UHGV virus genome: UHGV-0179428
Length of the DNA stretch: 64,000 nt
DNA from: a virus
Direction: 5' to 3' (one strand)
In this document: in pieces, positions 22,462 through 42,864 of the stretch
Position numbering within the stretch: the first letter of the stretch is position 1
Layout: each line of letters begins with the position of its first letter
The notes under the pieces: generated by a model
Databases searched by the model: none
Seen by the model: the letters and a program-made list of their open reading frames with translations, nothing else
What the model was told of the DNA's origin: nothing
Translations under genes and position numbers: made by a program

Positions 22462-22529
22462 GGTAGCGATTTCTCTATCGTGAACTAAAAGATCTGGGGG
22501 TTAACACCCCCAGACGGTTCTTTTGGGAT

Positions 22530-23060
22530 TTAGGACGTAAAGCCGTCCAGCTCACCGTTGGTGGTAGCCAGGTCAATACGTTTGTCTTCCACTTTCGGGG
22601 TAATAACAAACGTTGCCATTACACCTGGTTTATAACGGAGGTTCTTTTCAGTAACAGTACACGTTACCGTACGCAGAGTAACGTTTTCATGTTCGTCTTT
22701 CTGGTCTTCGGTAGAATAAGAAACGTCCGCTGGATGAATAGCATCGTCCGGTTTAACTTTATTGATGTAATATTGTAACCATGCGCGCAATTCGTTTTGA
22801 TCTTCCCAACGAGACAGATCGTCAGTTAGTTCAATACGACCTACAACACCCGGTTCCAGACGATCGTAATGCAGTTCGATTGCGCCTTTGAAATTCTCAG
22901 AACCTGGTAGTGCAGTCATGGTAACTTTGGTATTCTTACCTTCGCCTTCCAGCGCAGTAGGGAGACCAAAGGACACTTCTTTATCAGTAATCTGATGTGG
23001 TAGCTCAGTGTTAGCAGCATTATAAAGCGCGACCAACATCATCTGGTTAGTAGCGGCCAT
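22530..23060 (-). CDS. ELDGFT-family paralog (176 aa)
   Basis: C-terminal GELDGFTS; same architecture as neighbours. Confidence 0.75.
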   Translation of the reverse strand: MAATNQMMLVALYNAANTELPHQITDKEVSFGLPTALEGEGKNTKVTMTALPGSENFKGAIELHYDRLEPGVVGRIELTDDLSRWEDQNELRAWLQYYINKVKPDDAIHPADVSYSTEDQKDEHENVTLRTVTCTVTEKNLRYKPGVMATFVITPKVEDKRIDLATTNGELDGFTS

Positions 23061-23125
23061 TATCTTAGATCCTTAATAATACGTTTTAAAGAAATATCGG
23101 GGGAGGACACCCCCCCCCGATTCAA

Positions 23126-23668
23126 TTACTCTTTAGGACTCGGTGCAGTGAAGCCCTCGAGCTCACCATCCAGGCTGTCCAGAGCTACCTTCTGAGGAGC
23201 CGGTACACGGTACTGGTAATTTGCAATCATACCAGCCTGGAACTTGATATGACCTTCTTTTACCTGTACAGTATAGTTGAAACCGCCTTCACCTGCATCA
23301 GTTTTCTGGATTTCCAGTTCTTCTGCGATAAAGGCATCATCGACATAACCTTTAGTAATCATGTCGGCATTCAGTGCAGCTACGATAACATCGTTAGCGA
23401 CATCAGTAGTTGCATCAGTAACGGTTTTCACACCGATTAAAGATTCGGCGACCAGACGGATATAATGGAACTCTTTGCTTCCGGTAAAGTTAGCGCTTTC
23501 GTCTTTTGCAGTCAGGACAACTTTAGTATTACGGTTGTCATCTTCGCCAGAAGGACTATAAAGTTCTACAGTACCGAAATTAACATCGCCAACAGTCAGT
23601 TGGTGTTCCAGGGAACCGTTTTTGGCATTAACGGCGTCAATAAGTTGCTGTTGAAAAGCTTTAGCCAT
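23126..23668 (-). CDS. ELDGFT-family paralog (180 aa)
   Basis: N-terminus QQLIDAVNAKNGSL, C-terminal GELEGFTAP. Confidence 0.75.
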   Translation of the reverse strand: MAKAFQQQLIDAVNAKNGSLEHQLTVGDVNFGTVELYSPSGEDDNRNTKVVLTAKDESANFTGSKEFHYIRLVAESLIGVKTVTDATTDVANDVIVAALNADMITKGYVDDAFIAEELEIQKTDAGEGGFNYTVQVKEGHIKFQAGMIANYQYRVPAPQKVALDSLDGELEGFTAPSPKE

Positions 23669-23808
23669 CGTTTTTACCTCGTGTGTGGCAGGGTGGATTG
23701 CATAGTATTGTTCGGATTATAGAAGTGGTGTTAATTGTTATGACAGACGGCAGTAAGGCTTGTCTGTAAAAATATTTTTTTAAACTTTTTATAAAAAAGG
23801 TGAAAAGT

Positions 23809-24291
23809 ATGATAAAGCGTTTTCTTATCGTTTTGGTTGGTGTTTTTTCGTTGGCAGGATGTGCTTTACAACCGAATAGTAACGGTCAATTCTCGACTGT
23901 GCCGGTGGAGCCACATGACATGGTTATTTACACCTGTATGGGTGTAGAGCAAGATTTTGCGAATTACAAACCTGTCGTCAGCTCGACTAACCTCATGTTA
24001 GGGTCAGTAACCGTACTCGATACTGGTGCTAATTGGGTAGCCACTTGGCCAAACGGTAAGATTGAGTCGCCACAACTTTATAAAGACTTATTAGGTAAAG
24101 TTAATGGGAATATTGATCCTATCACTGGACAACGTTACTACCGTGTAAATGGTTTACTTTCAAAAACACCAACATTTGCGTATTCTACTTTGGAATATAA
24201 AACGGGTGATGGTAAAGGCATTACTTTCTTCCGCTGTATAGAAGGTGTAGCGCCTGACACTGGAACAATGCTCCATCCTGCGGAACAATAA
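23809..24291 (+). CDS. predicted lipoprotein (about 160 aa)
   Basis: ATG at 23809 after AAGGTG; signal peptide with lipobox LAGC (MIKRFLIVLVGVFSLAGC); only plus-strand gene inside the minus block. Confidence 0.7.
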   Translation: MIKRFLIVLVGVFSLAGCALQPNSNGQFSTVPVEPHDMVIYTCMGVEQDFANYKPVVSSTNLMLGSVTVLDTGANWVATWPNGKIESPQLYKDLLGKVNGNIDPITGQRYYRVNGLLSKTPTFAYSTLEYKTGDGKGITFFRCIEGVAPDTGTMLHPAEQ

Positions 24292-24297
24292 AAACTA

Positions 24298-24333
24298 CCC
24301 TACTCCCGATAAGGAGTAGGGTATATTCATTTT
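24298..24333. terminator. bidirectional terminator between the convergent lipoprotein and peptidase genes
   Basis: Hairpin CCCTACTCC-CGATAA-GGAGTAGGG followed by TATATTCATTTT. Confidence 0.6.
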
Positions 24334-24406
24334 AACCGCCAAATAGTGCGTAAAACGCATTCTAAGCGTCTTTATACAAAATGAGGTATAAACACCTTAG
24401 AAATAG

Positions 24407-24922
24407 TTAAATATCGACTATGGCGCTCCAATCGATTGGTTTTTGCTTAACAACTTTCACAGTACCACGATTTGGTGACCAGAAAGTAATGTTAGGCTGG
24501 TTACGAACGTCGATGTGCAACCAACTGATGTCACATTCAATAAAGTGAATGAACGGAAACTCGTCAGGGTTAGCAGCGATATAGTCGTGGACCTGTTTTA
24601 CGGTGCTATCCAACAACGTTGCATCAATGGCGTTACCGAATTTGTGTTGACTTCCTGAATCGGCGTAAAGCTGCAATGCACGTTGTTTATAACTACCACC
24701 CTTAGGCTTTTCTTGATTAATAAAGAAATCTAAGGTTCTTAGTCCGCGTTGCTGTGCGGCAGTTGAGTTAATCACCATTCTACCGAAACGGTTACGAATC
24801 TGTTGTAGGGAAATCATTAGCAACGGATTCATAAACCGAATTGCGGAATCGCCGTATTTGGCAATGTAGGACTGTGGTACTAACTCTCTGAGTTTAAAGT
24901 TACTCGGATTTGGATGAAACAT
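24407..24922 (-). CDS. peptidase M15-like (D-Ala-D-Ala carboxypeptidase fold) cell-wall hydrolase
   Basis: Motif DSGSQHKFGNAIDA matches the S.H..G.A.D zinc-peptidase signature; sits in the lysis neighbourhood. Confidence 0.5.
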   Translation of the reverse strand: MFHPNPSNFKLRELVPQSYIAKYGDSAIRFMNPLLMISLQQIRNRFGRMVINSTAAQQRGLRTLDFFINQEKPKGGSYKQRALQLYADSGSQHKFGNAIDATLLDSTVKQVHDYIAANPDEFPFIHFIECDISWLHIDVRNQPNITFWSPNRGTVKVVKQKPIDWSAIVDI

Positions 24923-25574
24923 CTTCCCTCCCAGACAGAAATGCTCGTTTGATGTTCAGGTATTTGACATTAACGGGACAATCTGTGGTGATATCAATAC
25001 GTTCGTGGTCAGGGATTGCAGGTTCCTTAAACTCGCGAACGAATAAATAGTTTCGATTGTAATCTAACGTACGAAACGCGTTAGTGTTGTAGGATGGCTT
25101 TGCATTAGGATCTACGTAGGCATCCCAGCCGAATTCAACAACGGCCTTATAAAATGTTTGGCAGATATAAGGCGAGATTTCCAACGACTGCATAATACGC
25201 AGGAACGTTAAGTCAGAAAACTCTTTGTCGATAAAACGCGAAACGTTACCACCCGGTGTCATGGGATAGCTACGCTCCGTGTTACATTTTTGATAAAGTA
25301 GGTCGTGAATGCAGGCCGCAGGTGCCCACGGTCCGTCAGGATGAAAAATTCCCTGGAGGTGTTCAGGAATTGACGCTAAATCGGTAACGAACCCTTTCGG
25401 TGCCGTTAACCACAGTTGTGTGTCAGGCAATACACCTGTTAAATAAACCGCACGGTCTAAGTGTACGTGGTCGTGATAAATTTCACGTAACGTAAACGGA
25501 TAATGGTAATCCTCCGTTAATACAAACCACTTATTGTCTAAACGTTTATATTGAAGCTTCTCCATTACCCACAC
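24900..25574 (-). CDS. DUF1353-like protein (224 aa)
   Basis: FVTDLASIP ... IHDLLYQ motifs typical of DUF1353; overlaps the downstream gene by 23 nt. Confidence 0.5.
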   Translation of the reverse strand: MWVMEKLQYKRLDNKWFVLTEDYHYPFTLREIYHDHVHLDRAVYLTGVLPDTQLWLTAPKGFVTDLASIPEHLQGIFHPDGPWAPAACIHDLLYQKCNTERSYPMTPGGNVSRFIDKEFSDLTFLRIMQSLEISPYICQTFYKAVVEFGWDAYVDPNAKPSYNTNAFRTLDYNRNYLFVREFKEPAIPDHERIDITTDCPVNVKYLNIKRAFLSGREDVSSKSE

Positions 25575-25681
25575 CTTCCCTTATAGAAACCAGAAAAATT
25601 CGTATCCACGTTTTTCGTCTTTACGTTTCCGCCCAGACGTTAACGCCTTCCACAATAACGCTAAGAGTTTAGCAAACCAGT

Positions 25682-26272
25682 TCATTTTACTAACCCCGCC
25701 TTCGCCACATAATCCGGCATTTCCCTGAACACACGTGCGTACCAACCGTAAGCGAATTTTTCATTCTTCTTACGCTTTTCGGAGATTTCTGTGTAGTAAG
25801 TTACCTGGTGTGAGATTAATGCAAAGATTAAGATGCCTAATCCTTCGTCTTTACGGTATTTCAGATAAGCATTCAGGGCACCTAGCGTTTTAGGCCCCAT
25901 CCCCCCGTCGGTGTCAATATCTGCGTAAAGCTTCCCTTCGTTATTTAAAACGTTGAGAATACGTTGTAACGATTTCACACAGTTAACGCGGCCAGAGTTA
26001 ATAGCAAAATCAAACATCCGGTCTGCGAGCAAGGGTGAGATAGCGAAAATCTCATCGAGTTTAAGTTTCTTCCACCAACCGCGATCGTAAATATCAAACG
26101 CCTGCGCACGGGTCAGATCCTTCATTCTTCCTTTATACCCGTATTCGCGTGCAGTTGTTAGTGTTACACCGTGACAGGTTTCCCCACCTTTATCGTCGGG
26201 GTCGTTCACGTACCCACCTTCTAAATCTGTTTTCGAAGCAATAATACCTTCTTTAGTCCAACGTTCGGCCAT
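25682..26272 (-). CDS. endolysin, glycoside hydrolase family 108 with C-terminal peptidoglycan-binding region
   Basis: N-terminal LEGGYVNDPDDKGGETCHGVT is the GH108 signature; strong RBS AAAGAGGAG. Confidence 0.75.
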   Translation of the reverse strand: MAERWTKEGIIASKTDLEGGYVNDPDDKGGETCHGVTLTTAREYGYKGRMKDLTRAQAFDIYDRGWWKKLKLDEIFAISPLLADRMFDFAINSGRVNCVKSLQRILNVLNNEGKLYADIDTDGGMGPKTLGALNAYLKYRKDEGLGILIFALISHQVTYYTEISEKRKKNEKFAYGWYARVFREMPDYVAKAGLVK

Positions 26273-26285
26273 TTTGTTTAACTCC

Positions 26286-26328
26286 TCTTTTACACAAAAA
26301 AAGAAAAGAGGGTGGGATTACCCCACCC
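26286..26328 (-). terminator. rho-independent terminator downstream of gene 26334-26810
   Basis: Hairpin GGGTGGG-ATTA-CCCCACCC; on the minus strand it is followed by TCTTTTCTTTTTTTG. Confidence 0.6.
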
Positions 26329-26333
26329 TGTCG

Positions 26334-26810
26334 TTATTTCTTCTTAGCGCGTGATGGCTTAGCTGGCGGTGTTTCAACAGTCGGTTTACGCGCAACACGC
26401 ACTGTAAAACCACCGACCCAGGTTAGGCACTCAGGACGGAAGAAAATGCCGTGCTCGATTGCACTGCCGTCCAGCGGTAACTCACCAACCTGCTCTACCC
26501 ATACGTCGTCTTCAGTAAGGGTTAAGCCATACTGCTCGTTAATTACAGGCAACAGGTCCGCAGTCGTGGTTGCTGTCTCAACTAACAGTTTCGGCAATAC
26601 GTTGAGGAAATACAAACCTGCATCGATACGATTATACTGGAACGTTTGCTTATTAGCATAACCGAGATTCTTAACCGCCACAACCGTAATTTCGGTGTTG
26701 TACGCACCGGTACTTACGACGGGCTCACCCAATGTAACTTTGGCGGTGTCAAGCTCAGCGTCTGGGTTAGCCTTTTTAATAAGGTCGAAGATAGTTTCTT
26801 GACTGGTCAT
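26334..26810 (-). CDS. ELDGFT-family-related protein (158 aa)
   Basis: N-terminus ETIFDLIKKANPDAELDTAKVTLGEP resembles the family N-terminus; basic C-terminal tail. Confidence 0.65.
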   Translation of the reverse strand: MTSQETIFDLIKKANPDAELDTAKVTLGEPVVSTGAYNTEITVVAVKNLGYANKQTFQYNRIDAGLYFLNVLPKLLVETATTTADLLPVINEQYGLTLTEDDVWVEQVGELPLDGSAIEHGIFFRPECLTWVGGFTVRVARKPTVETPPAKPSRAKKK

Positions 26811-26823
26811 TACTGTAATCCTC

Positions 26824-27672
26824 TTAATCTAAGAATCCCGGTAAGACCGAATTAGTTTTAGCTAATTCAATCTTCGACTTCGGACGATCGGTTCCGTTAA
26901 AGTGGATTAACAGATTACCGGTCAGGTTAGCACACAGTCCACTGAGTGCGAGTACCAGCACACGCGTGTACTTCGTATTTGCGCCTTCGTAACCTGCGGT
27001 AGGGCCATCGTACATAACCTTGGCACCGTAGAGGTTATTAGCAGCGTTTTTAGGTACGCTTACCCATTTCTCATCAACGACGTTAACCAGTTTAGTGGCT
27101 AACTCAGCCAGGTCGACAGTGTCGTTAATGGTAATCGGATCGAGGTAATCTTTTTCTGCGGTGAAGTCAATTGGATAAGAATAAACCGCTGCGTTACCTT
27201 TCTTAGTGGACGGATACTCTACCAGGTTTTCTAATTGAGTAACAGGTAACAGTTTAGCCAGATCAATAGGATCGCGTAGCGTAAGTGTCACCTCGCCACA
27301 CCATTCGTAGGATTTCTCATTAGCGGTAAACTGATGGGTTTCACCTTCAACTTTCGCATCAATGATATCCGACGGCAGGATATTTAAATCGTATTTTGCG
27401 TTGATTGCATTAAGCAAATCTGCAGCGGTTACAACACCATCGTTACCGAATACCAACTCACCTGTTAGGTATTCGGGCAAGTTACGACGATGATAAGTCA
27501 CAGTTAAAGTAGTAGACTCATCGCCTTTGAGTTTAGAAGTCAGAACCACCTGGGTATCAACCCCAGTACCAGTAGGTTCGCCGATATCAACATCACTGAA
27601 GGTCAATGGCGGAACAATATTGTTTTCAGTGTTGATGAGTTTTAGCAGTTTCTGTTTTGACGTAAGAGACAT
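26824..27672 (-). CDS. ELDGFT-family-related protein (282 aa)
   Basis: N-terminus KLLKLINTENNIVPPLTFSDVDIGEP, C-terminal SVLPGFLD. Confidence 0.7.
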   Translation of the reverse strand: MSLTSKQKLLKLINTENNIVPPLTFSDVDIGEPTGTGVDTQVVLTSKLKGDESTTLTVTYHRRNLPEYLTGELVFGNDGVVTAADLLNAINAKYDLNILPSDIIDAKVEGETHQFTANEKSYEWCGEVTLTLRDPIDLAKLLPVTQLENLVEYPSTKKGNAAVYSYPIDFTAEKDYLDPITINDTVDLAELATKLVNVVDEKWVSVPKNAANNLYGAKVMYDGPTAGYEGANTKYTRVLVLALSGLCANLTGNLLIHFNGTDRPKSKIELAKTNSVLPGFLD

Positions 27673-27780
27673 CGCGTTAACTCACAATAAGTAAAAAAGG
27701 TTTAAGAGGTCGTTTTACATCCCTCAGCCAGCATAGGAATAGTCGAGTAGAGGGTAAGCAAAGTAATGTCAAAATAACAA

Positions 27781-27831
27781 AAAAGAAAAGGCAAAGAAAA
27801 TTAATTCCGCTATAGACCGAAGCCTATAGCG
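27781..27831 (-). terminator. rho-independent terminator downstream of gene 27840-28271
   Basis: Hairpin CCGCTATAG-ACCGAAGC-CTATAGCGG followed on the minus strand by a T-rich run. Confidence 0.55.
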
Positions 27832-27839
27832 GAGTGAGA

Positions 27840-28271
27840 TTAACGAACGTTGTGTGCTAAGTACATCAGAGAACGAGTGTCGGTGTCACGAGAAGTTTGT
27901 GACATCTGGCTCAGTAACTTGTTGGCGGTAGGATCGCTATAAAGACGTTTTAACCATTCGTCAACCATTTCTGGTACAGTGTCGACCAGCAGTGGATAGT
28001 TAAGATTTTCCAGTGTGTATTCAACGAATTCGTGCATCAGATTCTGGTCACGATACATGGTGTCACCTAACTCACCTGCGGGATACTCTTCACGAGGACG
28101 TTTACCCCAGCTACAAATCTCCATATAGGCCGTGTTTACAATCTCTTTGTATTCCTCTAACTTAAGTAAATCGAAGCCAGTATTCGGGCGGCAGAAACCT
28201 ACTAAAACGCTCAGAGCAATAGGGTTGTTACGAACGTAGTTACGGATTTCATCATTTAATACGAAAAACAT
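27840..28271 (-). CDS. hypothetical protein (143 aa), paralog of 29483-29911
   Basis: Strong RBS CCTAAAGGAG; similar to the ORF at 29483-29911 (NDEIRNYVRNNP vs NSDLRDYIRKYP, shared Cys/Trp positions). Confidence 0.7.
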   Translation of the reverse strand: MFFVLNDEIRNYVRNNPIALSVLVGFCRPNTGFDLLKLEEYKEIVNTAYMEICSWGKRPREEYPAGELGDTMYRDQNLMHEFVEYTLENLNYPLLVDTVPEMVDEWLKRLYSDPTANKLLSQMSQTSRDTDTRSLMYLAHNVR

Positions 28272-28340
28272 TTTAATACTCCTTTAGGTAAATACAATAA
28301 TGGAGGGGTGGTAAACCACCCCTTGTACGATTTTAGTTAA

Positions 28341-29462
28341 TTAACGAAATTTTTGACAAGCAGGGCAATCGCAGCCTATACCAGAAGATATTTCTCTAAA
28401 GATCGCGTCGAACGAGTGCTCATTATTCTTAAGAAAACGAGCTCCCGCCAAGTCACGCAGATGAGTTTTTAACTTTCCGATAATACCGGGTTCATAGTTG
28501 AGTAGAATGGTAAGTGTATTGTCTGTGTAAGTCCACTGACGGACTTTCTCAGGAAACCAACGAGCGATATCGCGCATAAACGTATCGGCATCTTCTTTCC
28601 CAATAGTAGTGATTGTTAGAAGACGTAGACGTTTGTCAACAATCTCATTAATGAGGTTGCTAATTTCTTCGTCAAGAGCAGCGTCCCACCATTTCCATTT
28701 AATGGTGAGTTTTTCGCCCTCGAGTTTAGTCTCTACTTTGGTAGGATAGAAAGCTGTCAAGGTATCATTAATCGCTTCGGCCTCTGGGCCAGTGTAAGTA
28801 AAGGAATACGGTTCTTCGAACCATTTAATAACGTCAGGATCATTATCAACAAGCACGGTTAGCGTGCCGTCGACATAATTAGACCCACGAATTTTCTTTT
28901 TGTATTCGTGAACAGCACTACGCATGACTGCATCTGCGTCTTCTTTTCCGATATCACGAACCGAAATAAGTCGAACGGCGTCTTTGACGATCAGAGCAAC
29001 GATGATGCGAATAGCTTTCATGATCTTAGGATCGAATTCCTTCATCCTGAAAGCCAACATGTCGTATTTTTGACTAATGTATAAGGCGTCGGGATAGAGG
29101 ATATTTAATGCTTCTTTAATTTTCTCGATCGTTTCGACATCATATTGATTTACGTATGACGTGTCATCATTGCCTACAGACCACTGCTGGTCTTTGACTT
29201 TCGGTTGCTCAGCCTCGGTCGCTTTTACCTTGGCGTTCTCGGCTACCGGGTTGAGTAACTCACCGATTTCCACCGCAATAGTGTCACAAAGATAATCGTT
29301 GCAGTGAGTCCAGTAGAATACGATGCTTTCATCGTTGACCTGCTCTACACGGAAATACACACCTTTATCCAGGAATATGCGATAAAGTTGATCGAGTAAC
29401 TGTGCTTCGGGAACCGGACGGATTTCAGTTTTAACGAGCGGGGTAATTTCGATATTAAACAT
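28341..29462 (-). CDS. hypothetical protein (373 aa) with internal duplication
   Basis: Two copies of an IGKEDAD.(V/F)MR...YTD.TLT(V/I)L segment. Confidence 0.7.
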   Translation of the reverse strand: MFNIEITPLVKTEIRPVPEAQLLDQLYRIFLDKGVYFRVEQVNDESIVFYWTHCNDYLCDTIAVEIGELLNPVAENAKVKATEAEQPKVKDQQWSVGNDDTSYVNQYDVETIEKIKEALNILYPDALYISQKYDMLAFRMKEFDPKIMKAIRIIVALIVKDAVRLISVRDIGKEDADAVMRSAVHEYKKKIRGSNYVDGTLTVLVDNDPDVIKWFEEPYSFTYTGPEAEAINDTLTAFYPTKVETKLEGEKLTIKWKWWDAALDEEISNLINEIVDKRLRLLTITTIGKEDADTFMRDIARWFPEKVRQWTYTDNTLTILLNYEPGIIGKLKTHLRDLAGARFLKNNEHSFDAIFREISSGIGCDCPACQKFR

Positions 29463-29482
29463 GTATTTTTCCTTTTGGTAAA

Positions 29483-30714: not shown

Positions 30715-31209
30715 TTAGAGATGTTTTCCGATAACTTCCGAAACTAATTCGTAAAGGTCATCGTCACTGCACAAGTCTACACTAATCCCAATGTCGATGC
30801 TACGGCTGCGGAATCCCACTTTCACCACTTTACCGAGTTCGGTTTGTAGGGCTTTATAGAGTCTATTCTTATCTTCTTCAGTGAGAGGAACGGGTAGCCT
30901 AACGGTGAACTTGTAATGTTCTTTCGAAACAAGCTCGTTGGAATAATTAAGTCGTTTGGCTACTTGCGTTCCGACAATCTGTGTTACCAGCTTAAACATT
31001 TCTTCGTCACTATACGGTGTTGCGCCATAACCGATATCAATAGAATTTCTACGGAAACCTGCGCAGAACAAAGCACCGAACTGCTCACGGAATTCTTTGT
31101 GTAGAATATCTTTTTCTACATCCAACAACCCGTAACCCAAGTCAACAGTGAATTTGTATTTTTCTTTGTCAACTAATTCGTTAGTGTAATCAAGTCTAGT
31201 GAAGTTCAT
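30715..31209 (-). CDS. hypothetical protein (164 aa) with tandem internal duplication
   Basis: Two about 75-aa repeats (YTNELVDKEKYKFTV...SIDIGYG / YSNELVSKEHYKFTV...SIDIGIS); promoter-like box and hairpin upstream. Confidence 0.7.
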   Translation of the reverse strand: MNFTRLDYTNELVDKEKYKFTVDLGYGLLDVEKDILHKEFREQFGALFCAGFRRNSIDIGYGATPYSDEEMFKLVTQIVGTQVAKRLNYSNELVSKEHYKFTVRLPVPLTEEDKNRLYKALQTELGKVVKVGFRSRSIDIGISVDLCSDDDLYELVSEVIGKHL

Positions 31210-31234: not shown

Positions 31235-31290
31235 GTTAAGTGAGAGCTTTTGTACTCTCACTTAAGTAATATATATCTGAAATTATTTTT
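31235..31290 (-). promoter_or_regulatory. promoter-like ATATATATTAC box plus conserved 5' hairpin (module c)
   Basis: Minus strand reads TTCAGATATATATTACTTAAGTGAGAG-TACAAAAG-CTCTCACTTAAC, then RBS and ATG at 31209. Confidence 0.4.
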
Positions 31291-34275: not shown

Positions 34276-34286
34276 GTTATAGTTCC

Positions 34287-34730
34287 TTAAATCATACCTG
34301 GGAATTCGAAATCGATTTTATCTAAAAGTTTGTAGTCTTCTTTTAGCTGAAGCATTAGCGTATTCTTAAACAGTTCAAGCGAACCGATAAAGTAAGCCGT
34401 ATAGCAGCTACCAAGAACAGAAGAGGAAAGACCCAAGTCTCTTAAACATTGTTTCAAGATTTCATGTTCTTCAGCGGTACCGAAAAGTTGGAAATTGATA
34501 ACGGTAATCTGTTTATTAATGATTGCCGATAACCATTCTTTAATTCTTCTCGTGGTTATACGTTCTTTGAAATCACTAGCTTCTGGCAACCAGGTAATGT
34601 GAACGAACGGTGCATCGTAATCCACGAGAACTTTCTGCTGCCAACGTACTTGCATCAAACCACGAATACGGTTTGCTAACGTTTCAGAATCACAAAGCAA
34701 CATAATGCCATTAGTAGTATTTGGTTTCAT
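34287..34730 (-). CDS. hypothetical protein (147 aa)
   Basis: ORF; 4-nt overlap with upstream gene. Confidence 0.6.
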   Translation of the reverse strand: MKPNTTNGIMLLCDSETLANRIRGLMQVRWQQKVLVDYDAPFVHITWLPEASDFKERITTRRIKEWLSAIINKQITVINFQLFGTAEEHEILKQCLRDLGLSSSVLGSCYTAYFIGSLELFKNTLMLQLKEDYKLLDKIDFEFPGMI

Positions 34731-35578
34731 AATTGCCCTTCCTTCTTAATGTAATCTTCAACCAACTTATCAAACACGATTTTTATCTTCTCGCGTTCTT
34801 TTTCACCCAATTCACCGGAACAGGTTAGTCCATTTATCTTTCCGTACCGTAATTCCAACACATATTTCAACCGATGACGTAAGGCTTGTTCAAAATGTGT
34901 CGGGATATAGATCGGTTCGAAGTTGTGCAATAAAGTAAAATTGTCTTCGGTGTGTTTAGGGGGTTCGAATTTTACTCTATCTAAGATAGTAAGCCAGCGT
35001 TGTCTGTCGACTAGCCGATCGTCCCAATAAACAGGTTTTGTTTTAGAGGGGGTAAGTGTATTGTAGTTACTGGAATCGGAGATACGGAAATTTGCTGTGA
35101 CGTAAGTCTTCGTGAGTAACGAGAGAAGACAAATCGTTCCTTCTTCGGAGTAACTTAAACCCTCGTCGAGTACGTCTTTAGCTTTCTTGAAGTAGTCTTC
35201 AATATAGTCTTCAGCAATTGGTTGAATCTCTACTTCTATAGCGCTAATTTGGGGCCCGTCTATCCGTAAAGGAAATTTTAGTTCAGCAATATATTGCCTA
35301 TCCGATGTATAAGCGCGTGTAATAATAGGGTAAGTAACAGGCTTAGCCAAATGACGATATTCACCAACCCTAATGACTGCGGAACGTCCAAAGTCACCTT
35401 TATTCGATTTTGAAAAACCGTAAAGGTCTTTTAGATACTCCAAATACTGGTCATCAGTCATTTCGTCGGTATTAAATTCACGAATGTAAAGTCGATTAAA
35501 AGATCCCTTTGTTTGTTCGTAGTAATAACCGGGGTCCCTATTTGCTAGAATGTGCGGGAGATAATACGGGTGATACAT
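34727..35578 (-). CDS. hypothetical protein (283 aa)
   Basis: RBS CCTAAAGGAGG; promoter-like box and hairpin upstream. Confidence 0.7.
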   Translation of the reverse strand: MYHPYYLPHILANRDPGYYYEQTKGSFNRLYIREFNTDEMTDDQYLEYLKDLYGFSKSNKGDFGRSAVIRVGEYRHLAKPVTYPIITRAYTSDRQYIAELKFPLRIDGPQISAIEVEIQPIAEDYIEDYFKKAKDVLDEGLSYSEEGTICLLSLLTKTYVTANFRISDSSNYNTLTPSKTKPVYWDDRLVDRQRWLTILDRVKFEPPKHTEDNFTLLHNFEPIYIPTHFEQALRHRLKYVLELRYGKINGLTCSGELGEKEREKIKIVFDKLVEDYIKKEGQL

Positions 35579-35605: not shown

Positions 35606-35663
35606 GGAGTGAACGTAAATTTCACTCTCCCCTAGGTAATATATATCTGAGAAAAAATAAAAA
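35606..35663 (-). promoter_or_regulatory. promoter-like ATATATATTAC box plus conserved 5' hairpin (module a)
   Basis: Minus strand: T-run, TCAGATATATATTACCTAGGGGAGAG, hairpin GGAGAGTGAA-ATTTACG-TTCACTCC, RBS, ATG 35578; box nearly identical to the one at 53172-53197. Confidence 0.45.
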
Positions 35664-35697
35664 AGGTAGTAGGGGCTAAGCCCCTACTACCTAAAAA

Positions 35698-36318
35698 TTA
35701 CTTCATTCCGTTCTGAGAAAGTGTTGTCCCTGCAAGATGTTTAATAACGATCTTAACAGGTAAATTACCATTCTCGTACTGTACTTCGGTTTCAGACAAA
35801 TCGTCGATATTGATAACTTTAGAGGGTACCTTCGCTAAAACAACACGAATGGTGTGGGTTATTGTACTGGCTGTAGTTTTTGTATTACTAACGTAGAAAT
35901 ACGCATCAATAATACTACCATCCGCTGCCAGGTAAACCAATTTATTTTCCAACAGGCACTGGCTATAAATTGACACTCCTGATAATTGCGAAACACCCAG
36001 CCTGTTGTTAACGTCAACCGTTGTTTTGCAGATTACCGCACCACCCGTCAACGTTTTTTCTACTACCATATTTCCCGATAAGGTTTTTGCATCTATTTTT
36101 GGTACTACCGGATGAGCACCATTAACAAATAACCCATCGTTATTAGACTTAAGGATGTTATTCGCCGACGGACTCACTGTAACCTCAGTACCCCCTAATT
36201 TCTCAATCGGGAGTTGGTATTCAGTTTGTTCCTTAGACGCTAAGACTACTACACCCGTGACGTCTTCTGAAAGTGTCGGCAGTTCGTGAACGCGTACCTT
36301 TCCTACCAGTTCAGTCAT
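35698..36318 (-). CDS. short fibre-like protein (206 aa) sharing its N-terminal module with the long tail fibre
   Basis: MTELVGKVRVHELPTLSEDVTGVVVLASKEQTEYQLPIEKL aligns with the fibre N-terminus MAKAVKKIRLHDLRPYTGDIGEGVLLFSKDEKDYKLPVREI. Confidence 0.7.
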   Translation of the reverse strand: MTELVGKVRVHELPTLSEDVTGVVVLASKEQTEYQLPIEKLGGTEVTVSPSANNILKSNNDGLFVNGAHPVVPKIDAKTLSGNMVVEKTLTGGAVICKTTVDVNNRLGVSQLSGVSIYSQCLLENKLVYLAADGSIIDAYFYVSNTKTTASTITHTIRVVLAKVPSKVINIDDLSETEVQYENGNLPVKIVIKHLAGTTLSQNGMK

Positions 36319-36833
36319 TGGCGACCTCCGAATGTTAAGGCACGGTTATCTGCAGTGACGATTAAATCGTTGTCTTTTACTACAGCGGCTTCTTCGTCGT
36401 TACCGAAAACCAGAACGGAGAATTGACCTTTATAACCTAACGAGTTGGGTGAAACCTGTAATGTTACAGTGTCTCTCCCTACGGTAAATGGTTCGTCGGT
36501 AAGATCTTCGGCTTGTAAATTGCAACCACAAGCCGCGTTAATTCCGTCGATTAGATCGTGTGCGGTAAAGCCATTACCGAAAACCTTTACCAGAATAGGC
36601 TGCTGGTTTAACCACCGCTCTGCGGTTAAACGGTTGTAATAGATCTGTAACGTTCTGTTGCCAGGACGTTTGATCTTTACAACAGCGGTAGTATCACGAT
36701 CCATTTCATCGCTGATCTTTACTTCGCTGATTTCAACCTCATTCTCTTGCAGATTGAGCTGAAGGTCGTGGTTGATCAGCGAAATAACCATGTTAGGTGA
36801 GGTTAGCGACAAATCTGGCACGAATTGTCCCAT
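36315..36833 (-). CDS. hypothetical protein (about 172 aa), paralog of 42865-43431
   Basis: Probable start ATG 36833 (MGQFVPDLSLTSP); conserved VPDLSL, LINHD and CG.NLQ(A/P)EDL segments shared with the paralog. Confidence 0.65.
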   Translation of the reverse strand: MGQFVPDLSLTSPNMVISLINHDLQLNLQENEVEISEVKISDEMDRDTTAVVKIKRPGNRTLQIYYNRLTAERWLNQQPILVKVFGNGFTAHDLIDGINAACGCNLQAEDLTDEPFTVGRDTVTLQVSPNSLGYKGQFSVLVFGNDEEAAVVKDNDLIVTADNRALTFGGRQ

Positions 36834-36921
36834 AAGCTTACTCTCTACGGTTGGGGGATAAAATGATTCTAGCAATATTTTATCCCCGATTATATTTTCA
36901 AGCGCATTCAGTTGAAAATAA

Positions 36922-37425
36922 TTAGCTAATTCTCAAATCACGCAGCGCGCCTGTTGATTTCATCACGTTTTGGAACGCAGCGCTGATGTTATTAGTCCAG
37001 TAATAATGCTGTCCGTTAATAACCTGCTGATAGGTCAGCGCGCAGGTGTTGCCACCTAAATTTACGGTAATGTTAGAGCCTCTGCCTCCTTGTAAGTAAA
37101 CCGCTAAAGTAGGCTTTGCGTTGGCAACTATCGTTGTTAACTGTAACTCAATACCTACTAAAGTTCCCACCCCGCAGTTACCCGCGTTTTGAATGGTTCC
37201 CTGATTTTTCTGGTTTAACGGCCAGCTTGGTCCTACTGCGCCCCATTTCTTACCTAAAGAATCGCTATATGCAGCGGTTGCAATTTTACAGCCCATAGAT
37301 CGTCCCACCATTTGACTCATCATAAAAGGTCTACCCAATCCTAATTTACTACCAGCGGCGCTCATCCATTGTTCGCCCGTTTCGTTCTTGGCCGAAGAAC
37401 CGACCCATCCAGATGCTACCCCCAT
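36922..37425 (-). CDS. gp38-like adhesin paralog (167 aa) lacking the poly-Gly region
   Basis: N-terminus MGVASGWVGSSAKNETGEQWMS parallels the T-even gp38 attachment domain; C-terminus divergent. Confidence 0.6.
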   Translation of the reverse strand: MGVASGWVGSSAKNETGEQWMSAAGSKLGLGRPFMMSQMVGRSMGCKIATAAYSDSLGKKWGAVGPSWPLNQKNQGTIQNAGNCGVGTLVGIELQLTTIVANAKPTLAVYLQGGRGSNITVNLGGNTCALTYQQVINGQHYYWTNNISAAFQNVMKSTGALRDLRIS

Positions 37426-37441
37426 CTACCCTCTTTTTTAA

Positions 37442-38224
37442 TTAAACACGTGAACCGTATATTGCACCTACTGCGTCCCATCTTGGCGCATTACCAGTAA
37501 CAGCTTTACCAGCTGCTCCGCCGTTATATTCTGTACCGTTACCTTGAGTATTACATCTTCCTCCAGCAGCACCGACATTACCACCCGAACCGCCTGTATA
37601 TGCACTAAGAGACCCCTCACCAACAGATCCTCTACCAGGAGCGGAAATAGTACCAGCAGCTGCACCGGAACTCATATGAGAGGAAGACCCACCAGCACCG
37701 AATGGGCGACCACCGCCACCACCAAATATTAGTCTACCCCTGTTACCGCCACCACCGCCGCCACCGCCTCCGGCAATAGCGCCACGGTTGGTTATACGCA
37801 GTCTGTTTCCTATTCCGTTCTGTATTGCGGTTCCACCTGCACCGCCTGGTGAGTTAGAACCGCCGTTGCCTCCTCTGCCGTATACTGTAACCCCAGGATT
37901 GATGATGAGGGTAATATACGAATTTGGAAGATTGCTAGGGAATTCTAAACAAGGAACCGTGCTACTATGGGACACTAAATCCCCCGTAATAGTCACAACG
38001 ACAGCAGTAGAGCCTAAAGAACGTAAATAGTTAATAAGCGTATCTTTATTGTAATTGTGATTAGCCCCGATCGAATACTGAACCTCTTTTGATTTTCCCG
38101 CCAATTGCGACATCCAGCCTGGAACCGGCACACCAAGTGTGCGCATCGCGCCAGACATCCATTCGTTACCAGCTTCAGCTTTTGCTGAAGAACCAATCCA
38201 ACCACCTACGCCGACAACTGCCAT
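37442..38224 (-). CDS. T-even gp38-like tail-fibre adhesin with glycine-rich motifs (260 aa)
   Basis: N-terminus MAVVGVGGWIGSSAKAEAGNEWMS and multiple poly-Gly blocks (GGGGGGGGG, FGGGGGRPFGAGG, AAGKAVTGNAPRWDAVGAIYGSRV), recalled from memory as gp38-like; immediately downstream of the tail-fibre gene. Confidence 0.7.
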   Translation of the reverse strand: MAVVGVGGWIGSSAKAEAGNEWMSGAMRTLGVPVPGWMSQLAGKSKEVQYSIGANHNYNKDTLINYLRSLGSTAVVVTITGDLVSHSSTVPCLEFPSNLPNSYITLIINPGVTVYGRGGNGGSNSPGGAGGTAIQNGIGNRLRITNRGAIAGGGGGGGGGNRGRLIFGGGGGRPFGAGGSSSHMSSGAAAGTISAPGRGSVGEGSLSAYTGGSGGNVGAAGGRCNTQGNGTEYNGGAAGKAVTGNAPRWDAVGAIYGSRV

Positions 38225-41200
38225 TAGGATCTTCCTTTAATTTCGTTAACCTCTTGACGCAACGCTTTCATACCCTCTACTAACAGCGCAATAACGCCAT
38301 TGTAGTTTAGACGTAAACGTTTTTCGCCTGAAATGGCATCATCATCCTCAGACACAAGTTCAGGTAACGCTTCTAATGCGTCCTGAGCAATTAGACCTAC
38401 AGAAGTCTGCCAGCCGTCATCAGGATGCTGAATTTCGTACAAATAACCGGTTAGTAACTCTAACCGATCCAAAGCTTTATCCAGCTTCACCAGATTACGT
38501 TTGTTACGACGGTCAGAACGAATCTGTACGTCGTTAAACGAACCGTTACCGTTGCCAGTAACGTTATGTCCAAAGTTTACTTGGCCGTTAGAATTATTAA
38601 AAGACAACGGGCGTAATCCGTTCCAGGAACCCGCTGCGGCTTGTCCGGCGTCGGTTACTAAGAAATAGGTATTGGCACCGTCGTTACGTAAAATAAAACC
38701 GTAGGTACCGTAAGCGATTCGAAAATCAGGGTATTTAGTGGCCAATTTACCGTTAACGGTTAAATCGCCGCCTATAGTACCGCCCCCCGAAGGTAGTGCA
38801 CCCACTTCTGCAGCAGTTGGCTTGTTTCTCGTATTGTAAGCACGACGCCAGCCTGGTGAGTATGTATCGCCGTTAAATACGTAGATAAACTCCGCATTAG
38901 TGAGTGCGCCACCGACGCTCGCCGTTGTGGCAGTCGTTATACGGATCGTGTAGTTGTTTGTGCTATTACCGTTACTAATCACTTCTATAACGGCCCCAGC
39001 TAACGGAATAACACCACAACCCGTCTCGCTGTGTGGTATGGACGCACTAGCGGCATAAGCCCATGCACAGCGAGCAACCCACGATCTTGTGGTAAATGCG
39101 CCGTTATTTTTCAATAACGTCACTAGCTGTGCTGTAGTTATTGCGCCGCCATCTTTGCCAGTTTCTAACCAACCACTAGGCGATGCCGGACAACCTATAT
39201 CGGCAGGTCCTAACGATATATTTCTAGTGCCGTCAAATGCGATACCGTTAATGGTTCTTGCGGTTTGCAACTTTGTTGCCGTGGCTGCGTTTCCGGTGGT
39301 CGCCTGATTACCTGTTTGGTTTACTCCAGGTAAACTGATGTCTTTAGTACCATCAAAAGCTACACCACCTATATTTCGCGCAGTCTGGAGCTTAGTCGCT
39401 GTCGCCGCATTCCCCGTAGTCGATTGGTTACCGGTTTGGTTTACGCCAGGAAGATTAACGTCTTTTGTCCCATCGAAAAGCACACCGCCGATCTTACGTG
39501 CGGTTTGTAACTTAGTAGCGGTCGCTGCATTACCTGTCGTATTCTGGTTGCCTTGCTGGTTAACGCCCGGTAAATTGATATCACCTGTACCGTCAAAGGT
39601 AACGCCTCCGATCCTGCGAGCGGTTTTCAGTTTCGTCGCGGTAGCGGCGTTGCCGGTAGTATCTTGATTACCGGTGGCATTTACGCCAGGAATGCTGTCA
39701 CGGGCAGTATAAACTTGTGCCCAATCTGACCACGGCGCATCAGCCGTATCACGTCGACTACGAATATAAACTGGCGCGTGCGCACCACTCGTCCCCGACC
39801 ATCCGATTAACAGCTCGCCTTCACCTAGCGCAGTAGAACCACCCAAATGCAATAAGTTACCATAAGCGGTTGGATAACCGTTATTGTAAACTTCGTACAT
39901 CTGAATACCGGGTGTACCTTTGTTTGATCCAGTCAGTGCAGTAACACGTCCACGTCCTACCAACGTGTTGATATTGATGTCTCTAGACCCATCAAATTTC
40001 ACACCGTTGATGTTTCGAGCCGTTTGTAATTTGGTTGCGGTTCCCGCGTTCCCAGAGGTGTTTTGATTACCCTGTTGGTTCACACCAGGGAGGCTAATGT
40101 CGCCGCTACCGTCGAAACTTACACCGCCGATTAAACGGGCTGTTTTCAGTTTTGTTGCCGTTGACGCATTACCTGTCAATTCGCCCGATAACCCTTTTGC
40201 AAAGGTCTGTTTTTCTGCCCACGTATGCGCTGCATTCAATACGGGCATCTGGCGGCTAGTAATAGTACGTTTACCCTTTTCACCAGCGACGCGAACAGCA
40301 AAGAAGCGATAGTTAGCAGTAGACACTGTACCACGCCAGACCAACATACTCCGGCCAGTACCGGTGTCCTCCGACGCCCCTACAAGAATAGTGACCAAGT
40401 TACCGTCGATAACACCCCAATCCATTCCCGCAGGAATGTTTTTCATGGTATTCAACGGTGTACTTATCATCTGGCCAGGAACGAAGTCGAATGTTTGCCA
40501 GTCTAACGGATCGACCTTAGCAGCAACCCCACCGATCCCTAAAGTCAGCGGGAGTGAATAGGATGTGAAAATCTCTCGCCATTCGCTCCAGGCGTTTCCT
40601 GTACGAATTCGTTGGAACTTGCGACCTTTCGAAGTTGCGCCTGTACCGTATGTGGTATAATTTTGTTCAACACCTGAACCGTCTAAGCGTAAGGTAACTT
40701 CGCAAACGCCTAGCAAGGTTGCGCCAGCAGAGTCTGTTAACGGACTGTCTGTAGCCTCACCGGTAACACTAAAGCGACCTGGTTTAGTTAAGTCGTTAAA
40801 GCTACCCTTATAGTAGGCACCGTCTACCTGATACCCAACCTGAATCCAATCTTCCCACTGCGGATTAGACGAATCCCAAGTCGCAGTCAAACCACGGACA
40901 TACATCGTACCATGTCGTGTGGTGTATCGTTGCAACCGTCCGTAAAGACCACCTTCCATGACTTCTAATACGCCTTGCGCATTACCGCCCTCTTCAGGAT
41001 AATGTCTGTCGAACACCGCTAACGAACTGGACGAGTTACGCCAGTTACCCATGTGCTCAGCGCCGCCTAAGGAGTTCAGATCGATCGATGTAGATAACGG
41101 GCGTACACCGGTAGTTACCATTCTCCACGGTGACCACGGGCCATTAGTTCCGTTCCACGCACCTGACAACATACGGTTGTACACGTTACCATTACGGCAG

Positions 41201-42666
41201 GTAAAACGTTGCGCTCCACTGTAGTTGCCCGCTTTATACACTTCCAGATAACCGACTGCACCGTCTTCTGGGAAGTGTTTTGCCATCGACGCATTGGTTG
41301 ATGTCGACTTGGACCATGTTCCTGTGTAATTAGCATCTGGAGCAAATGTGTTAATATCAGCATCTACAGGCATTTCGCCACGGAAACGCAGATAGGTATC
41401 AGGAGATAGGCCGATATTGCGAGCAAAGGTTTCTTTATTGGGGATATCGGCACCGTTAGAATTTTTCTGTAATGCGCCGTTTGCTTTATCAACGGTGGGT
41501 TTCAAACCCAGGAAGTTAATGATATCCGCAGTTGACCCTTTCGCTAACAAGGATCTGGCAGTTTCTGTAAAATCGGTTAACTCGACTTTATTAGAGCCCG
41601 TGAAATACAGGAGTTTGTTTGCTGCACTTGTAACCGCAGCGATTGCGGTGAGTAACGGACTGAGAGGTTGTTTCTGAGCAAGCTCCTCAGTGATCGTTGT
41701 TGCGAAGTTAGGGTCATTACCTAACGCCTCTGCTAATTCCGCTAAGGTATTTAACGTCTCGGGTGAGGAACCAACCAATTCAGCAATCGCGTCACGCACC
41801 CAGGACGTTGTGGAGATGCTCGTGTCATTCGAGTCCTTCGGCGGTTTTGGTGTTGTCGGTTTACCCGTAAAATTCGGCGAATGTTTATTGGCTTTTAACT
41901 GTAATTCGTCGTTCAGCTGTTTAACAGTGGACGGCGTGGCAGCCTCCGTCACGGATTCGCTAGTCAGGGTATCGTTAAGTTTAACAATACCTTTACCGGT
42001 TGTAGTAGCGTCAACTAAGCCTTGGGCGGCGATTTTCTCCGCACGTAGGGCAGCTGACTCCGAACGCGTAGCTGCCCCTTCTGAGCTTTCTTTATCTTTC
42101 GCGACCTGTGCAGCAATCTTCTCCACTGCACCTTTACTGGCCTCAACTGAAGCCGCAGTATTTTCAACGCTGGTAGCCGCCTGTTGAACTTGTCCGGCCT
42201 GTTGCGTAACCGTTTCTGCTTTCTTAGTTACATCAGCCGCCGTAGCCGTCACAGATTGTTCGGATGTGGCGACAGCTTGAGCCTTCTCATTTACTGATTG
42301 TGAAACAGTATCTACGGCAGTTTTCGCTGCTAAAACCTCAGCGTGTTTTTTGTTAACCTCCGCAGTTTTAGTGGCAACGGTTCCCGCTTGCTCATTAACT
42401 GTGGAAGCTAACGTGTCAGTTTGTTGCTTCGCGGTTTCCGCTAAATTTTTTGCTTGCGCAGCTTCTGTTGCAGACTGTTGTGATTTGGCCGCAGCCGTTT
42501 GTGCATCAGCAACCGCGTTTCTGACGGTGTCAATGTCCGCAACGATTTCGCGGACGGGTAACTTATAATCTTTTTCGTCTTTCGAAAAAAGTAAAACGCC
42601 TTCGCCGATATCCCCGGTGTATGGACGCAAATCGTGTAAACGAATTTTCTTTACCGCTTTAGCCAT
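38224..42666 (-). CDS. long tail-fibre protein (about 1480 aa) with C-terminal intramolecular chaperone (peptidase S74-like) domain
   Basis: Start taken as ATG 42666 (MAKAVKKIRLHDL); about seven 37-aa repeats GNQ.TTGNAATATKLQTAR.IGGV.FDGT.DI.LPGVNQ; C-terminal segment SDRRNKRNLVKLDKALDRLELLTGYLYE...GLIAQDALEALPELV typical of self-cleaving chaperone domains. Confidence 0.85.
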   Translation of the reverse strand: MAKAVKKIRLHDLRPYTGDIGEGVLLFSKDEKDYKLPVREIVADIDTVRNAVADAQTAAAKSQQSATEAAQAKNLAETAKQQTDTLASTVNEQAGTVATKTAEVNKKHAEVLAAKTAVDTVSQSVNEKAQAVATSEQSVTATAADVTKKAETVTQQAGQVQQAATSVENTAASVEASKGAVEKIAAQVAKDKESSEGAATRSESAALRAEKIAAQGLVDATTTGKGIVKLNDTLTSESVTEAATPSTVKQLNDELQLKANKHSPNFTGKPTTPKPPKDSNDTSISTTSWVRDAIAELVGSSPETLNTLAELAEALGNDPNFATTITEELAQKQPLSPLLTAIAAVTSAANKLLYFTGSNKVELTDFTETARSLLAKGSTADIINFLGLKPTVDKANGALQKNSNGADIPNKETFARNIGLSPDTYLRFRGEMPVDADINTFAPDANYTGTWSKSTSTNASMAKHFPEDGAVGYLEVYKAGNYSGAQRFTCRNGNVYNRMLSGAWNGTNGPWSPWRMVTTGVRPLSTSIDLNSLGGAEHMGNWRNSSSSLAVFDRHYPEEGGNAQGVLEVMEGGLYGRLQRYTTRHGTMYVRGLTATWDSSNPQWEDWIQVGYQVDGAYYKGSFNDLTKPGRFSVTGEATDSPLTDSAGATLLGVCEVTLRLDGSGVEQNYTTYGTGATSKGRKFQRIRTGNAWSEWREIFTSYSLPLTLGIGGVAAKVDPLDWQTFDFVPGQMISTPLNTMKNIPAGMDWGVIDGNLVTILVGASEDTGTGRSMLVWRGTVSTANYRFFAVRVAGEKGKRTITSRQMPVLNAAHTWAEKQTFAKGLSGELTGNASTATKLKTARLIGGVSFDGSGDISLPGVNQQGNQNTSGNAGTATKLQTARNINGVKFDGSRDININTLVGRGRVTALTGSNKGTPGIQMYEVYNNGYPTAYGNLLHLGGSTALGEGELLIGWSGTSGAHAPVYIRSRRDTADAPWSDWAQVYTARDSIPGVNATGNQDTTGNAATATKLKTARRIGGVTFDGTGDINLPGVNQQGNQNTTGNAATATKLQTARKIGGVLFDGTKDVNLPGVNQTGNQSTTGNAATATKLQTARNIGGVAFDGTKDISLPGVNQTGNQATTGNAATATKLQTARTINGIAFDGTRNISLGPADIGCPASPSGWLETGKDGGAITTAQLVTLLKNNGAFTTRSWVARCAWAYAASASIPHSETGCGVIPLAGAVIEVISNGNSTNNYTIRITTATTASVGGALTNAEFIYVFNGDTYSPGWRRAYNTRNKPTAAEVGALPSGGGTIGGDLTVNGKLATKYPDFRIAYGTYGFILRNDGANTYFLVTDAGQAAAGSWNGLRPLSFNNSNGQVNFGHNVTGNGNGSFNDVQIRSDRRNKRNLVKLDKALDRLELLTGYLYEIQHPDDGWQTSVGLIAQDALEALPELVSEDDDAISGEKRLRLNYNGVIALLVEGMKALRQEVNEIKGRS
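39230..39700 (-). repeat. tandem about 108-111 bp coding repeats inside the tail-fibre gene
   Basis: Visible DNA-level periodicity corresponding to the 37-aa TATKLQTAR repeats; a second shorter block lies near 40010-40230. Confidence 0.55.
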
Positions 42667-42864
42667 GATATTTAATTCTCTATCTGGAGCTAAAAGATCT
42701 GGGAAGGTAAAACACCCCCCCAACATTTTTATAAGCGGACTATTATACTGGTTTTAATCCATCATCTTCTAACGTGAAAGTGATGTCCAATTCCGCGTTC
42801 TCATGATCTGGGTTTACTAAGTCTTGATAAAAGTTTGTTTTGGCCTCCGTTACCGGTAAAACCG

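Follow-up and report, generated by a model that had tools for sequence, protein, structure and literature searches.

Organization of the two sites

The window analyzed here, a 64,000-nt stretch of the virus genome UHGV-0179428, contains two closely similar intergenic stretches, both read on the minus strand. One (site 1) lies in front of gene 3, the third of a tandem array of DUF7941 paralogues, and the other (site 2) lies in front of a tail-fibre gene. In mRNA sense, each consisted of an A-tract, a G-run/C-run hairpin, the U-tract AUCUUUUAG and an initiation region of ~25 nt, an arrangement referred to below as the module. The features of the two sites are as follows.

21931..22461, minus strand: gene 3, third tandem DUF7941 / phrog_4862 paralogue, 176 aa, with a C-terminal ELDGFT
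22462..22491, minus strand: site 1 U-tract and putative translation-initiation region, CTTTTAGTTCACGATAGAGAAATCGCTACC
22492..22515, minus strand: site 1 hairpin, GTCTGGGGGT GTTA ACCCCCAGAT, 10 pairs in the terminator scan
38224..42666, minus strand: tail-fibre gene, 1480 aa, matching PHROG tail-fibre families and Pfam Phage_fiber_2, Gp34_trimer and Peptidase_S74
42667..42698, minus strand: site 2 U-tract and putative translation-initiation region, ATCTTTTAGCTCCAGATAGAGAATTAAATATC
42699..42723, minus strand: site 2 hairpin, TTGGGGGGGTG TTT TACCTTCCCAG, 11 pairs in the terminator scan, after the remnant of an upstream open reading frame (ORF)
42724..42738, minus strand: site 2 A-tract flank, CCGCTTATAAAAATG, which can pair with the U-tract and lengthen the hairpin

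The similarity centred on a 28-nt core (CCCAGATCTTTTAGYTCMMGATAGAGAA on the minus strand), 25 of whose 28 positions were identical between the sites. On the plus strand, this core appeared as ttctctatcgtgaactaaaagatctggg at 22471-22498 (site 1) and as ttctctatctggagctaaaagatctggg at 42676-42703 (site 2). Both cores ended 9 nt before a minus-strand ATGGCTAAA, at which the genes start (22461 and 42666). The initial annotation had described like stretches before the fibre gene and an ELDGFT-family gene, in the same orientation and at the same distance from the start, and this description held. It had also placed the hairpin after the core; because the genes lie on the minus strand, the hairpin is in fact 5' of the core. 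A search of the window for the core with up to three mismatches returned exactly these two matches, and none were found in 100 dinucleotide shuffles. The similarity ran from the hairpin to codon 3 over ~65 nt, covering 52 of 67 aligned columns, with a score of 83 vs 13 +/- 6.5 for shuffled sequences. The minus-strand order at site 1 was the gene 2 stop, ATCCCAAAAGAACC, GTCTGGGGGTGTTAACCCCCAGAT, CTTTTAGTTCACGATAGAGAAATCGCTACC and ATGGCTAAAAGC; at site 2 it was CCGCTTATAAAAATG, TTGGGGGGGTGTTTTACCTTCCCAG, ATCTTTTAGCTCCAGATAGAGAATTAAATATC and ATGGCTAAAGCG.

The true start of the fibre gene was placed at 42666, where the 1480-aa gene calls of the relatives begin at ATGGCTAAA. An N-terminal extension from the in-frame ATG at 42726, the start given in the ORF list, was rejected, since this ATG was lost in relatives and changes in hairpin length shift the frame. 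For annotation, the value of the comparison is that the fibre gene start is fixed.

Hairpins and U-tracts

At both sites, the stem had the features of an intrinsic terminator (G+C-rich, at least 5-7 bp, loop of 3-8 nt), and the U-tract was picked up on the sense strand by the T-run rule of the terminator scan (at least 5 T in 8). The fold energies with flanks were -20.8 kcal/mol at site 1 and -15.7 kcal/mol at site 2. The A-tract could pair with the U-tract, as AAAAGA:UCUUUU at site 1 and as UAAAA:UUUUA at site 2, the A-tract sequences being unrelated; the latter pairing was predicted by RNAfold in most lineages. Site 1 begins ~15 nt past the stop of gene 2, and site 2 lies ~20 nt past the stop of the upstream ORF or remnant, each in the same orientation as the gene before it. 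About 20 comparable hairpin-plus-T-run elements followed genes across the window.

Mapped terminators of phiKZ have a conserved C-run/G-run hairpin followed by TTAT, with the motif BCCYCCCCHWWDGGGRRGGBYTTATKYYGT (PMC10914365), and terminator motifs have also been described for 201phi2-1 (PMC11512511). The hairpins in the window resembled those of phiKZ-like phages in forming a genome-wide, intergenic family with a homopolymer-rich G/C stem, a short loop and a T-rich tail, and in a position that permits read-through control of the next gene. They differed in several respects. The arm order here is G-run then C-run, the tail is AGATCTTTTAG rather than TTAT, and ~35 nt after the hairpin are common to two genes. 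From the site anatomy and the likeness to phiKZ terminators, nucleotides 1-14 of the core were assigned to a terminator-type hairpin, as its 3' arm and U-tract. Each site thus appeared to be a hairpin of the intrinsic-terminator type followed by a translation-initiation region. In this widespread group of ~222-kb enterobacterial jumbo phages, G-run hairpins that lie between virion genes would thus act as mapped phiKZ terminators do.

The third-best match of a covariance model of the element (see below), at 24 bits, was another unit of A-tract, hairpin, U-tract and leader (26264-26352, minus strand) before a glycoside-hydrolase-108 (endolysin-like) gene at 25682-26272. Its architecture was alike, but it was not a copy.

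Conservation of the fibre leader

The window derives from a ~222-kb jumbo phage distantly related to SPN3US. SPN3US-like phages gave protein-level matches only (gene 3 ~40% identical, fibre residues 1-50 ~52%), and near and distant searches of a named-phage collection found no DNA match to the window. Near-complete relatives were present in IMG/VR (G001-G003), and further genomes of the group were found in many E. coli, Shigella and Salmonella assemblies. The comparison set consisted of G001-G004, two RefSeq records deposited as 'plasmids' and Logan/NCBI contigs; the five complete relatives (~222 kb) were G001, G002, G003, NZ_CP173450.1 and NZ_CP134650.1. Fibre upstream regions were compared in up to 15 lineages, with fibre N-termini 73-99% identical. 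The fibre leader of the L023 lineage was recovered by walking contigs via three protein look-ups.

The fibre leader (-34..-1, 42667-42700) varied in 2 of 34 columns among 14 lineages, whereas 31 of 49 synonymous third positions in the first 55 fibre codons varied in the same comparison. The mean pairwise divergence of the leader was 0.020 vs 0.224 at the synonymous sites, ~11 times lower. The A-tract on the other side of the hairpin, GCTTATAAAA, was invariant in all 10 columns in 12 lineages. This comparison pointed to strong purifying selection on the linear flanks of the fibre hairpin.

The hairpin itself was the most variable part of the fibre intergenic region in sequence. It nevertheless folded in each of the 13 lineages examined, with energies of -9 to -23 kcal/mol. 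The changes were G-C to G-U, A-U to G-U and variation in G-run length, and one lineage (L037) had a double change from G-C to A-U. Given the G-U pairs, the sense strand was more stable than the antisense strand in most lineages. On an identical stem, some lineages had the loop GCTTT, whereas others had AAAGC, which is its reverse complement. A bidirectional terminator elsewhere in the window (21874-21904), compared with that of G001, likewise had loops that were exact reverse complements (CGTAATA and TATTACG) on identical stems. Such loops imply that whole hairpins flip repeatedly in this phage group.

The last 14 nt of the core and the 9 nt that follow make up the ribosome-binding region, which was weak at both sites. 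Both genes had an anti-Shine-Dalgarno pairing energy of -2.9 kcal/mol (rank 55-56 of 61), where the median of the 61 genes was ~-6.8 kcal/mol and most genes had AAGGAG. Both leaders held a vestigial Shine-Dalgarno (SD) sequence, UAGAG, ~11 nt before the AUG. The combination of a strictly conserved 34-nt leader with a very weak SD is the point that could repay experiment, and the fibre leader could serve as a defined low-expression part for phage engineering.

Copy number and origin of the module

The covariance model, built from 16 copies of the element, scored 96 and 72.5 bits at the two sites. In the five complete relatives, it detected the fibre copy only, at 97-102 bits, with nothing else above 20.6 bits. 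Pattern searches of the same five genomes found the whole element, and each of its halves, once, before the fibre gene. Recurrence upstream of several genes and retention in relatives, as expected of a regulon, was not seen in these genomes. The initial annotation had proposed co-regulation of the two genes through a common element. One homologous upstream module does lie at the same distance from the start of both genes, but the single, fibre-only copy in the five relatives spoke against a dedicated regulatory element. Because the fibre module was single-copy in every relative and its hairpin structure was kept, the comparison identified it as the original. The module before gene 3 is a paralogous copy within a lineage-specific cassette, described by the following features.

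21917..22529, minus strand: hairpin-leader-gene 3 cassette, ~613 nt, an insertion/deletion relative to the relatives
22530..23668, minus strand: genes 2 and 1 of the DUF7941 array, with a G9 hairpin between them at 23096-23121

Alignment with G001 and NZ_CP173450.1 showed the cassette as one clean gap from the gene 2 stop to AGAAAAATAAAA, containing the hairpin, the leader, gene 3 and 14 nt. It was missing from the five complete relatives, which have only two tandem paralogues there, and was found in L019-L023. In L019-L022, gene 3 was 95% identical to that of the window and the leader was identical, including the site 1 core, a divergence too small to be informative. In L023 (a Salmonella Braenderup sample), gene 3 was 64% identical and the leader looked different.

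The L023 fibre leader was of the standard type, and its gene-3 leader had lost most of the 28-nt core (AGATCTTTTAG..GATAGAGAA). This gene-3 leader nevertheless kept a significant similarity to its own fibre module, one reached by 0 of 2000 shuffles overall and by 8 of 2000 for the post-hairpin part. In both cassette-bearing lineages, the fibre hairpin from the same genome was the nearest match of the gene-3 hairpin (scores of 25 vs 19 and 33 vs 17). In the window, the site 1 segment -37..-11 matched site 2 at 24 of 27 positions, while positions -10..-1 matched the L023 gene-3 leader at 7 of 10 vs 5 of 10 for site 2. A search for the source of the diverged L023 leader gave only chance 9-mers elsewhere, and its pattern was absent from IMG/VR. 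We infer that the near-identity in the window goes back to an old duplication, when the cassette arose, and to patchy gene conversion thereafter; a conversion tract from the hairpin to GATAGAGAA would explain why the two sites are so alike.

Interpretation and alternatives

The reading that we favour, and consider somewhat probable, is that the shared stretch is a terminator-type hairpin with its U-tract followed by a weak initiation region, and that the fibre copy is the original, which was copied to gene 3, an additional virion-protein gene of some lineages, and converted. As an intrinsic terminator, the hairpin and U-tract would partially terminate the transcripts of the upstream virion-protein genes, or they would protect the 3' ends of these transcripts. 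The weak initiation region would then give read-through transcripts a low and fixed rate of translation, as would be appropriate for proteins of which a virion needs few copies. Since both genes have a homologous module, similar termination read-through and similarly weak initiation are expected. Co-regulation would therefore be only trivial, in that both genes have like read-through and initiation signals, and the near-identity need not reflect a shared trans-acting regulator. The element is a real but ordinary intergenic one, and its only mildly interesting point is the tight conservation of the fibre leader. As a discrete unit of hairpin, leader and gene, the cassette may also represent a unit of gene gain or loss.

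Several points weigh against this reading. Termination, read-through and weak translation at both sites are deduced from the sequence. The U-tract is short (5 U in 9 nt, 3-4 of them consecutive) and weaker than that of most terminators in the window, and in one relative it is only UCUUUAG. The genes are presumably read by a phage-encoded multisubunit polymerase, judging from the TATATTAC boxes described below. The gene conversion rests on only two cassette-bearing lineages. The difference between the leader and the synonymous sites (Fisher p = 6e-8) comes from a test that treats related sequences as independent, so the p-value is indicative only. Finally, the 34-nt invariance exceeds the usual need of a terminator tail and a generic ribosome site. 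An extra, sequence-specific function may therefore exist.

The invariant leader might be a sequence-specific post-transcriptional operator, on which a phage RNA-binding protein, a small RNA or an internal helix acts to control fibre translation; the copied leader would subject the extra paralogue to the control that acts on the fibre gene. We regard this as unlikely. In the candidate helix, which surrounds the AUG, the U-tract (CUUUUAGC/U) pairs with GGCUAAA(A)G of codons 1-3. RNAfold predicted it at both sites, as 8-9 bp around the start codon (CUUUUAGUU:GGCUAAAAG at site 1, UUUUAGCU:GGCUAAAG at site 2). The very low divergence of the leader, beyond what a generic ribosome site needs, favours such an operator; the very weak SD makes another determinant of initiation plausible, and a fibre-derived leader precedes gene 3 in both cassette-bearing lineages. 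However, the leader alone folded no better than shuffles (z = -0.6), and in G004 a central pair of the helix is broken without compensation (GCU to GCA, with one U lost). The gene-3 leader of the L023 lineage lacks the complementary U-tract. An Rfam 15 covariance-model search gave chance-level hits only (13.6 and 16.2 bits, E ~0.5), and no candidate regulator was identified.

Phage T4 has translational operators of this general kind, namely the sites of RegA, gp32 and gp43, and the RegA sites recur on many mRNAs. The leader is like these operators in that a short conserved sequence common to several genes overlaps the ribosome-binding region. In contrast to the RegA sites, there are at most two copies here and no candidate repressor is known. 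If a specific factor did read the leader, it would offer a first handle on how nucleus-forming jumbo phages control their late genes post-transcriptionally.

A more elaborate form, which we consider quite unlikely, is that the fibre leader is a portable expression tag. Its terminator hairpin and 34-nt translational operator would set fibre stoichiometry, and it would have been copied and gene-converted for DUF7941 proteins made in step with the fibre. Such a tag would be a late-gene, post-transcriptional counterpart of the PeSL (promoter-early stem-loop) cassettes of T4-type phages, which, in the work of Arbiol et al. in 2010, reportedly carry a sigma-70 early promoter and occur in many copies. 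A resemblance to PeSL cassettes may lie in the stem-loop with expression signals at the boundary of variable or inserted genes, which could serve as a recombination junction. One copy heads the 613-nt insertion/deletion and the other borders a replaced gene. The element differs from PeSL cassettes in having only one or two copies per genome (two in the window) and no detectable promoter.

It is very unlikely that the extended hairpin is a processing site of the RNase III/RNase E type, or an mRNA-stabilising site, that uncouples the fibre from the upstream message. The intercistronic RNase III sites of T7 are structured hairpins with an internal loop between late genes, and here too a hairpin with an internal loop lies shortly before the ribosome-binding site of the next gene. 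At both sites and in most lineages, the predicted stem had two parts, an A:U lower stem of 5-6 bp and a G:C upper stem of 9-11 bp, separated by an internal loop. This structure is kept while the sequence varies, and the G-U pairs favour the sense RNA. The total helix of ~16 bp is, however, short for RNase III and shorter than that of the T7 sites, and the anatomy equals that of an ordinary A-tract/U-tract terminator. Nothing sets the two hairpins apart from the ~20 other terminator-like hairpins in the window.

Promoter signals

A promoter for a phage RNA polymerase could in principle lie in the block that follows the hairpin or in the TTATAAAAAT box that precedes it; identical middle or late promoters would then stand just behind a terminator and lead to co-transcription of the two genes. 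We consider this very improbable. In its favour, prediction is difficult for the short late and middle promoters of phiKZ-like phages (PMC7598289), the hairpin has invariant flanks, and a weak SD would fit a very short 5' untranslated region. The late promoter motif of phiKZ, read by the non-virion RNA polymerase (nvRNAP), is T-3 A T G+1 (PMC7598289). From hairpin to ATG, neither of the two sites contained a TATG, nor did any of the collected variants of site 2. The early promoters of phiKZ type, read by the virion RNA polymerase (vRNAP), were recognized by an AT-rich TATATTAC box ~10 nt before the start site, and neither site had such a box. The element did not stand before other late genes in the window or the five relatives, even with the covariance model. 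The TTATAAAAAT box was missing from site 1, and no other arrangement of this box with a hairpin at +1 was found in the window, so it was rejected as a promoter. A late promoter was likewise rejected as the main explanation, there being no TATG, no recurrence and a good TATG footprint elsewhere. Antisense RNA from a plus-strand TATG at ~42619 was also discarded, as this TATG was not kept in L047.

The footprint lies upstream of gene 1. The block TATGCAATCCA(C)CCCT (TATG followed by CAATCCACCCCT) at ~23689-23704 on the minus strand, 33 nt upstream of gene 1 (23126-23668), was invariant in 8 lineages, and two divergent types of sequence were seen upstream of it. The block may be a TATG late promoter of the phiKZ type whose initially transcribed region is conserved, and it fits the phiKZ late motif (PMC7598289). 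It is a good late-promoter candidate for the gene 1-2-3 operon.

Boxes of the TATATTAC type were found upstream of minus-strand genes in the window at 31273, 35643 and 53190, and two more occurrences, 17223 (plus strand) and 37918 (minus strand), were inside ORFs. The three upstream boxes belonged to a recurrent TTTTTTCTCAGATATATATTACCTAGGGGAGAG box, with similar ones near 47840 and 53930, which stood directly after strong terminators and was itself followed by a hairpin. The genes downstream of the three were 30715-31209, 34727-35578 and 52764-53123. The TTTTTTCTCAGATATATATTACCTAGGGGAGAG box looks like a phiKZ-type early promoter for the virion polymerase, and its place between a terminator and a hairpin is the remaining point in favour of a promoter at the two sites.

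The least probable explanation is that the likeness of the two sites is a recombination scar without regulatory meaning, from the assembly of the cassette by illegitimate or microhomology-mediated recombination, where any terminator and ribosome site would serve. In support of a scar, ATGGCTAAA opens gene 1 and gene 3 as well as the fibre gene, and the initial 11 nt (ATGGCTAAAGC) are common to gene 1 and the fibre gene; the five relatives can do without the cassette, its L023-lineage copy has drifted far from the core, and genes have been replaced on the upstream side of the fibre leader, but the likeness of each gene-3 hairpin to the fibre hairpin of its own genome points to continuing exchange rather than one old scar. 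The identity of the site 1 core where gene 3 is 95% identical would also stand against a scar, but with the limit on divergence given above.

Neighbouring genes and the DUF7941 paralogues

The remaining features around the two sites are as follows.

42865..43428, minus strand: DUF7941 paralogue 4, of the phrog_2935 type, upstream of the fibre gene, from family matches and ORF reading
downstream of the fibre gene: two gp38-like adhesin genes, matching GP38 and Gp38_N

Upstream of the fibre gene, 42745-42900 (minus strand) held a decayed 3' remnant, ~50 codons with a frame shift, of a gene. In G003-type relatives, this gene was an open frame of at least 812 aa that adjoins the fibre gene and had no Pfam match. 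An ELDGFT-like peptide in the remnant was readable only in the shifted frame.

Genes 1, 2 and 3 probably form one operon. All three encoded proteins end in ELDGFT, and gene 3 was 42% identical to gene 1 and 35% identical to gene 2. Identity between lineages was 52-64% for gene 1 and gene 3 and 85-95% for gene 2. Gene 3 was rare: only three protein clusters were found among 5.8 billion sequences, and no relatives were found in IMG/VR or in the GTDB species genomes.

Paralogue 4 ends like SPN3US gp144, without ELDGFT. SPN3US gp144, a virion structural protein, and gp143, a tail fibre, share the gene order of the window, with DUF488, an unknown gene, a DUF7941-type paralogue and a fibre N-terminal domain. 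In contrast to the window, gp144 and gp143 overlap (TAATG), with a GGAG SD and with no hairpin or leader. The module is thus confined to the phage group studied here. DUF7941 paralogues were repeatedly seen just upstream of fibre- or tailspike-like genes (L041 6551-7443, L045 3810-7104 and SPN3US gp144-gp143), next to a SASA-domain protein of 706 aa, a 710-aa protein and the fibre N-terminal domain. The family may comprise fibre adaptors.

Two genomes of the group have been deposited as circular 'plasmids', NZ_CP173450.1 from E. coli (221,873 bp) and NZ_CP134650.1 from Enterobacter ludwigii (222,441 bp), and such depositions come from clinical and wild-bird isolates. Together with the occurrences in bacterial assemblies, these records suggest a carrier state or contamination.

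A strong terminator of 13 bp was located upstream of paralogue 4 (43462-43493, minus strand), with a TATG in its loop (CGATTCTATGGGCGG), and was identical in L041. The start of paralogue 4 is likely the GTG at 43428, after this terminator. Transcripts would start within this hairpin if TATG serves as the signal for late initiation.

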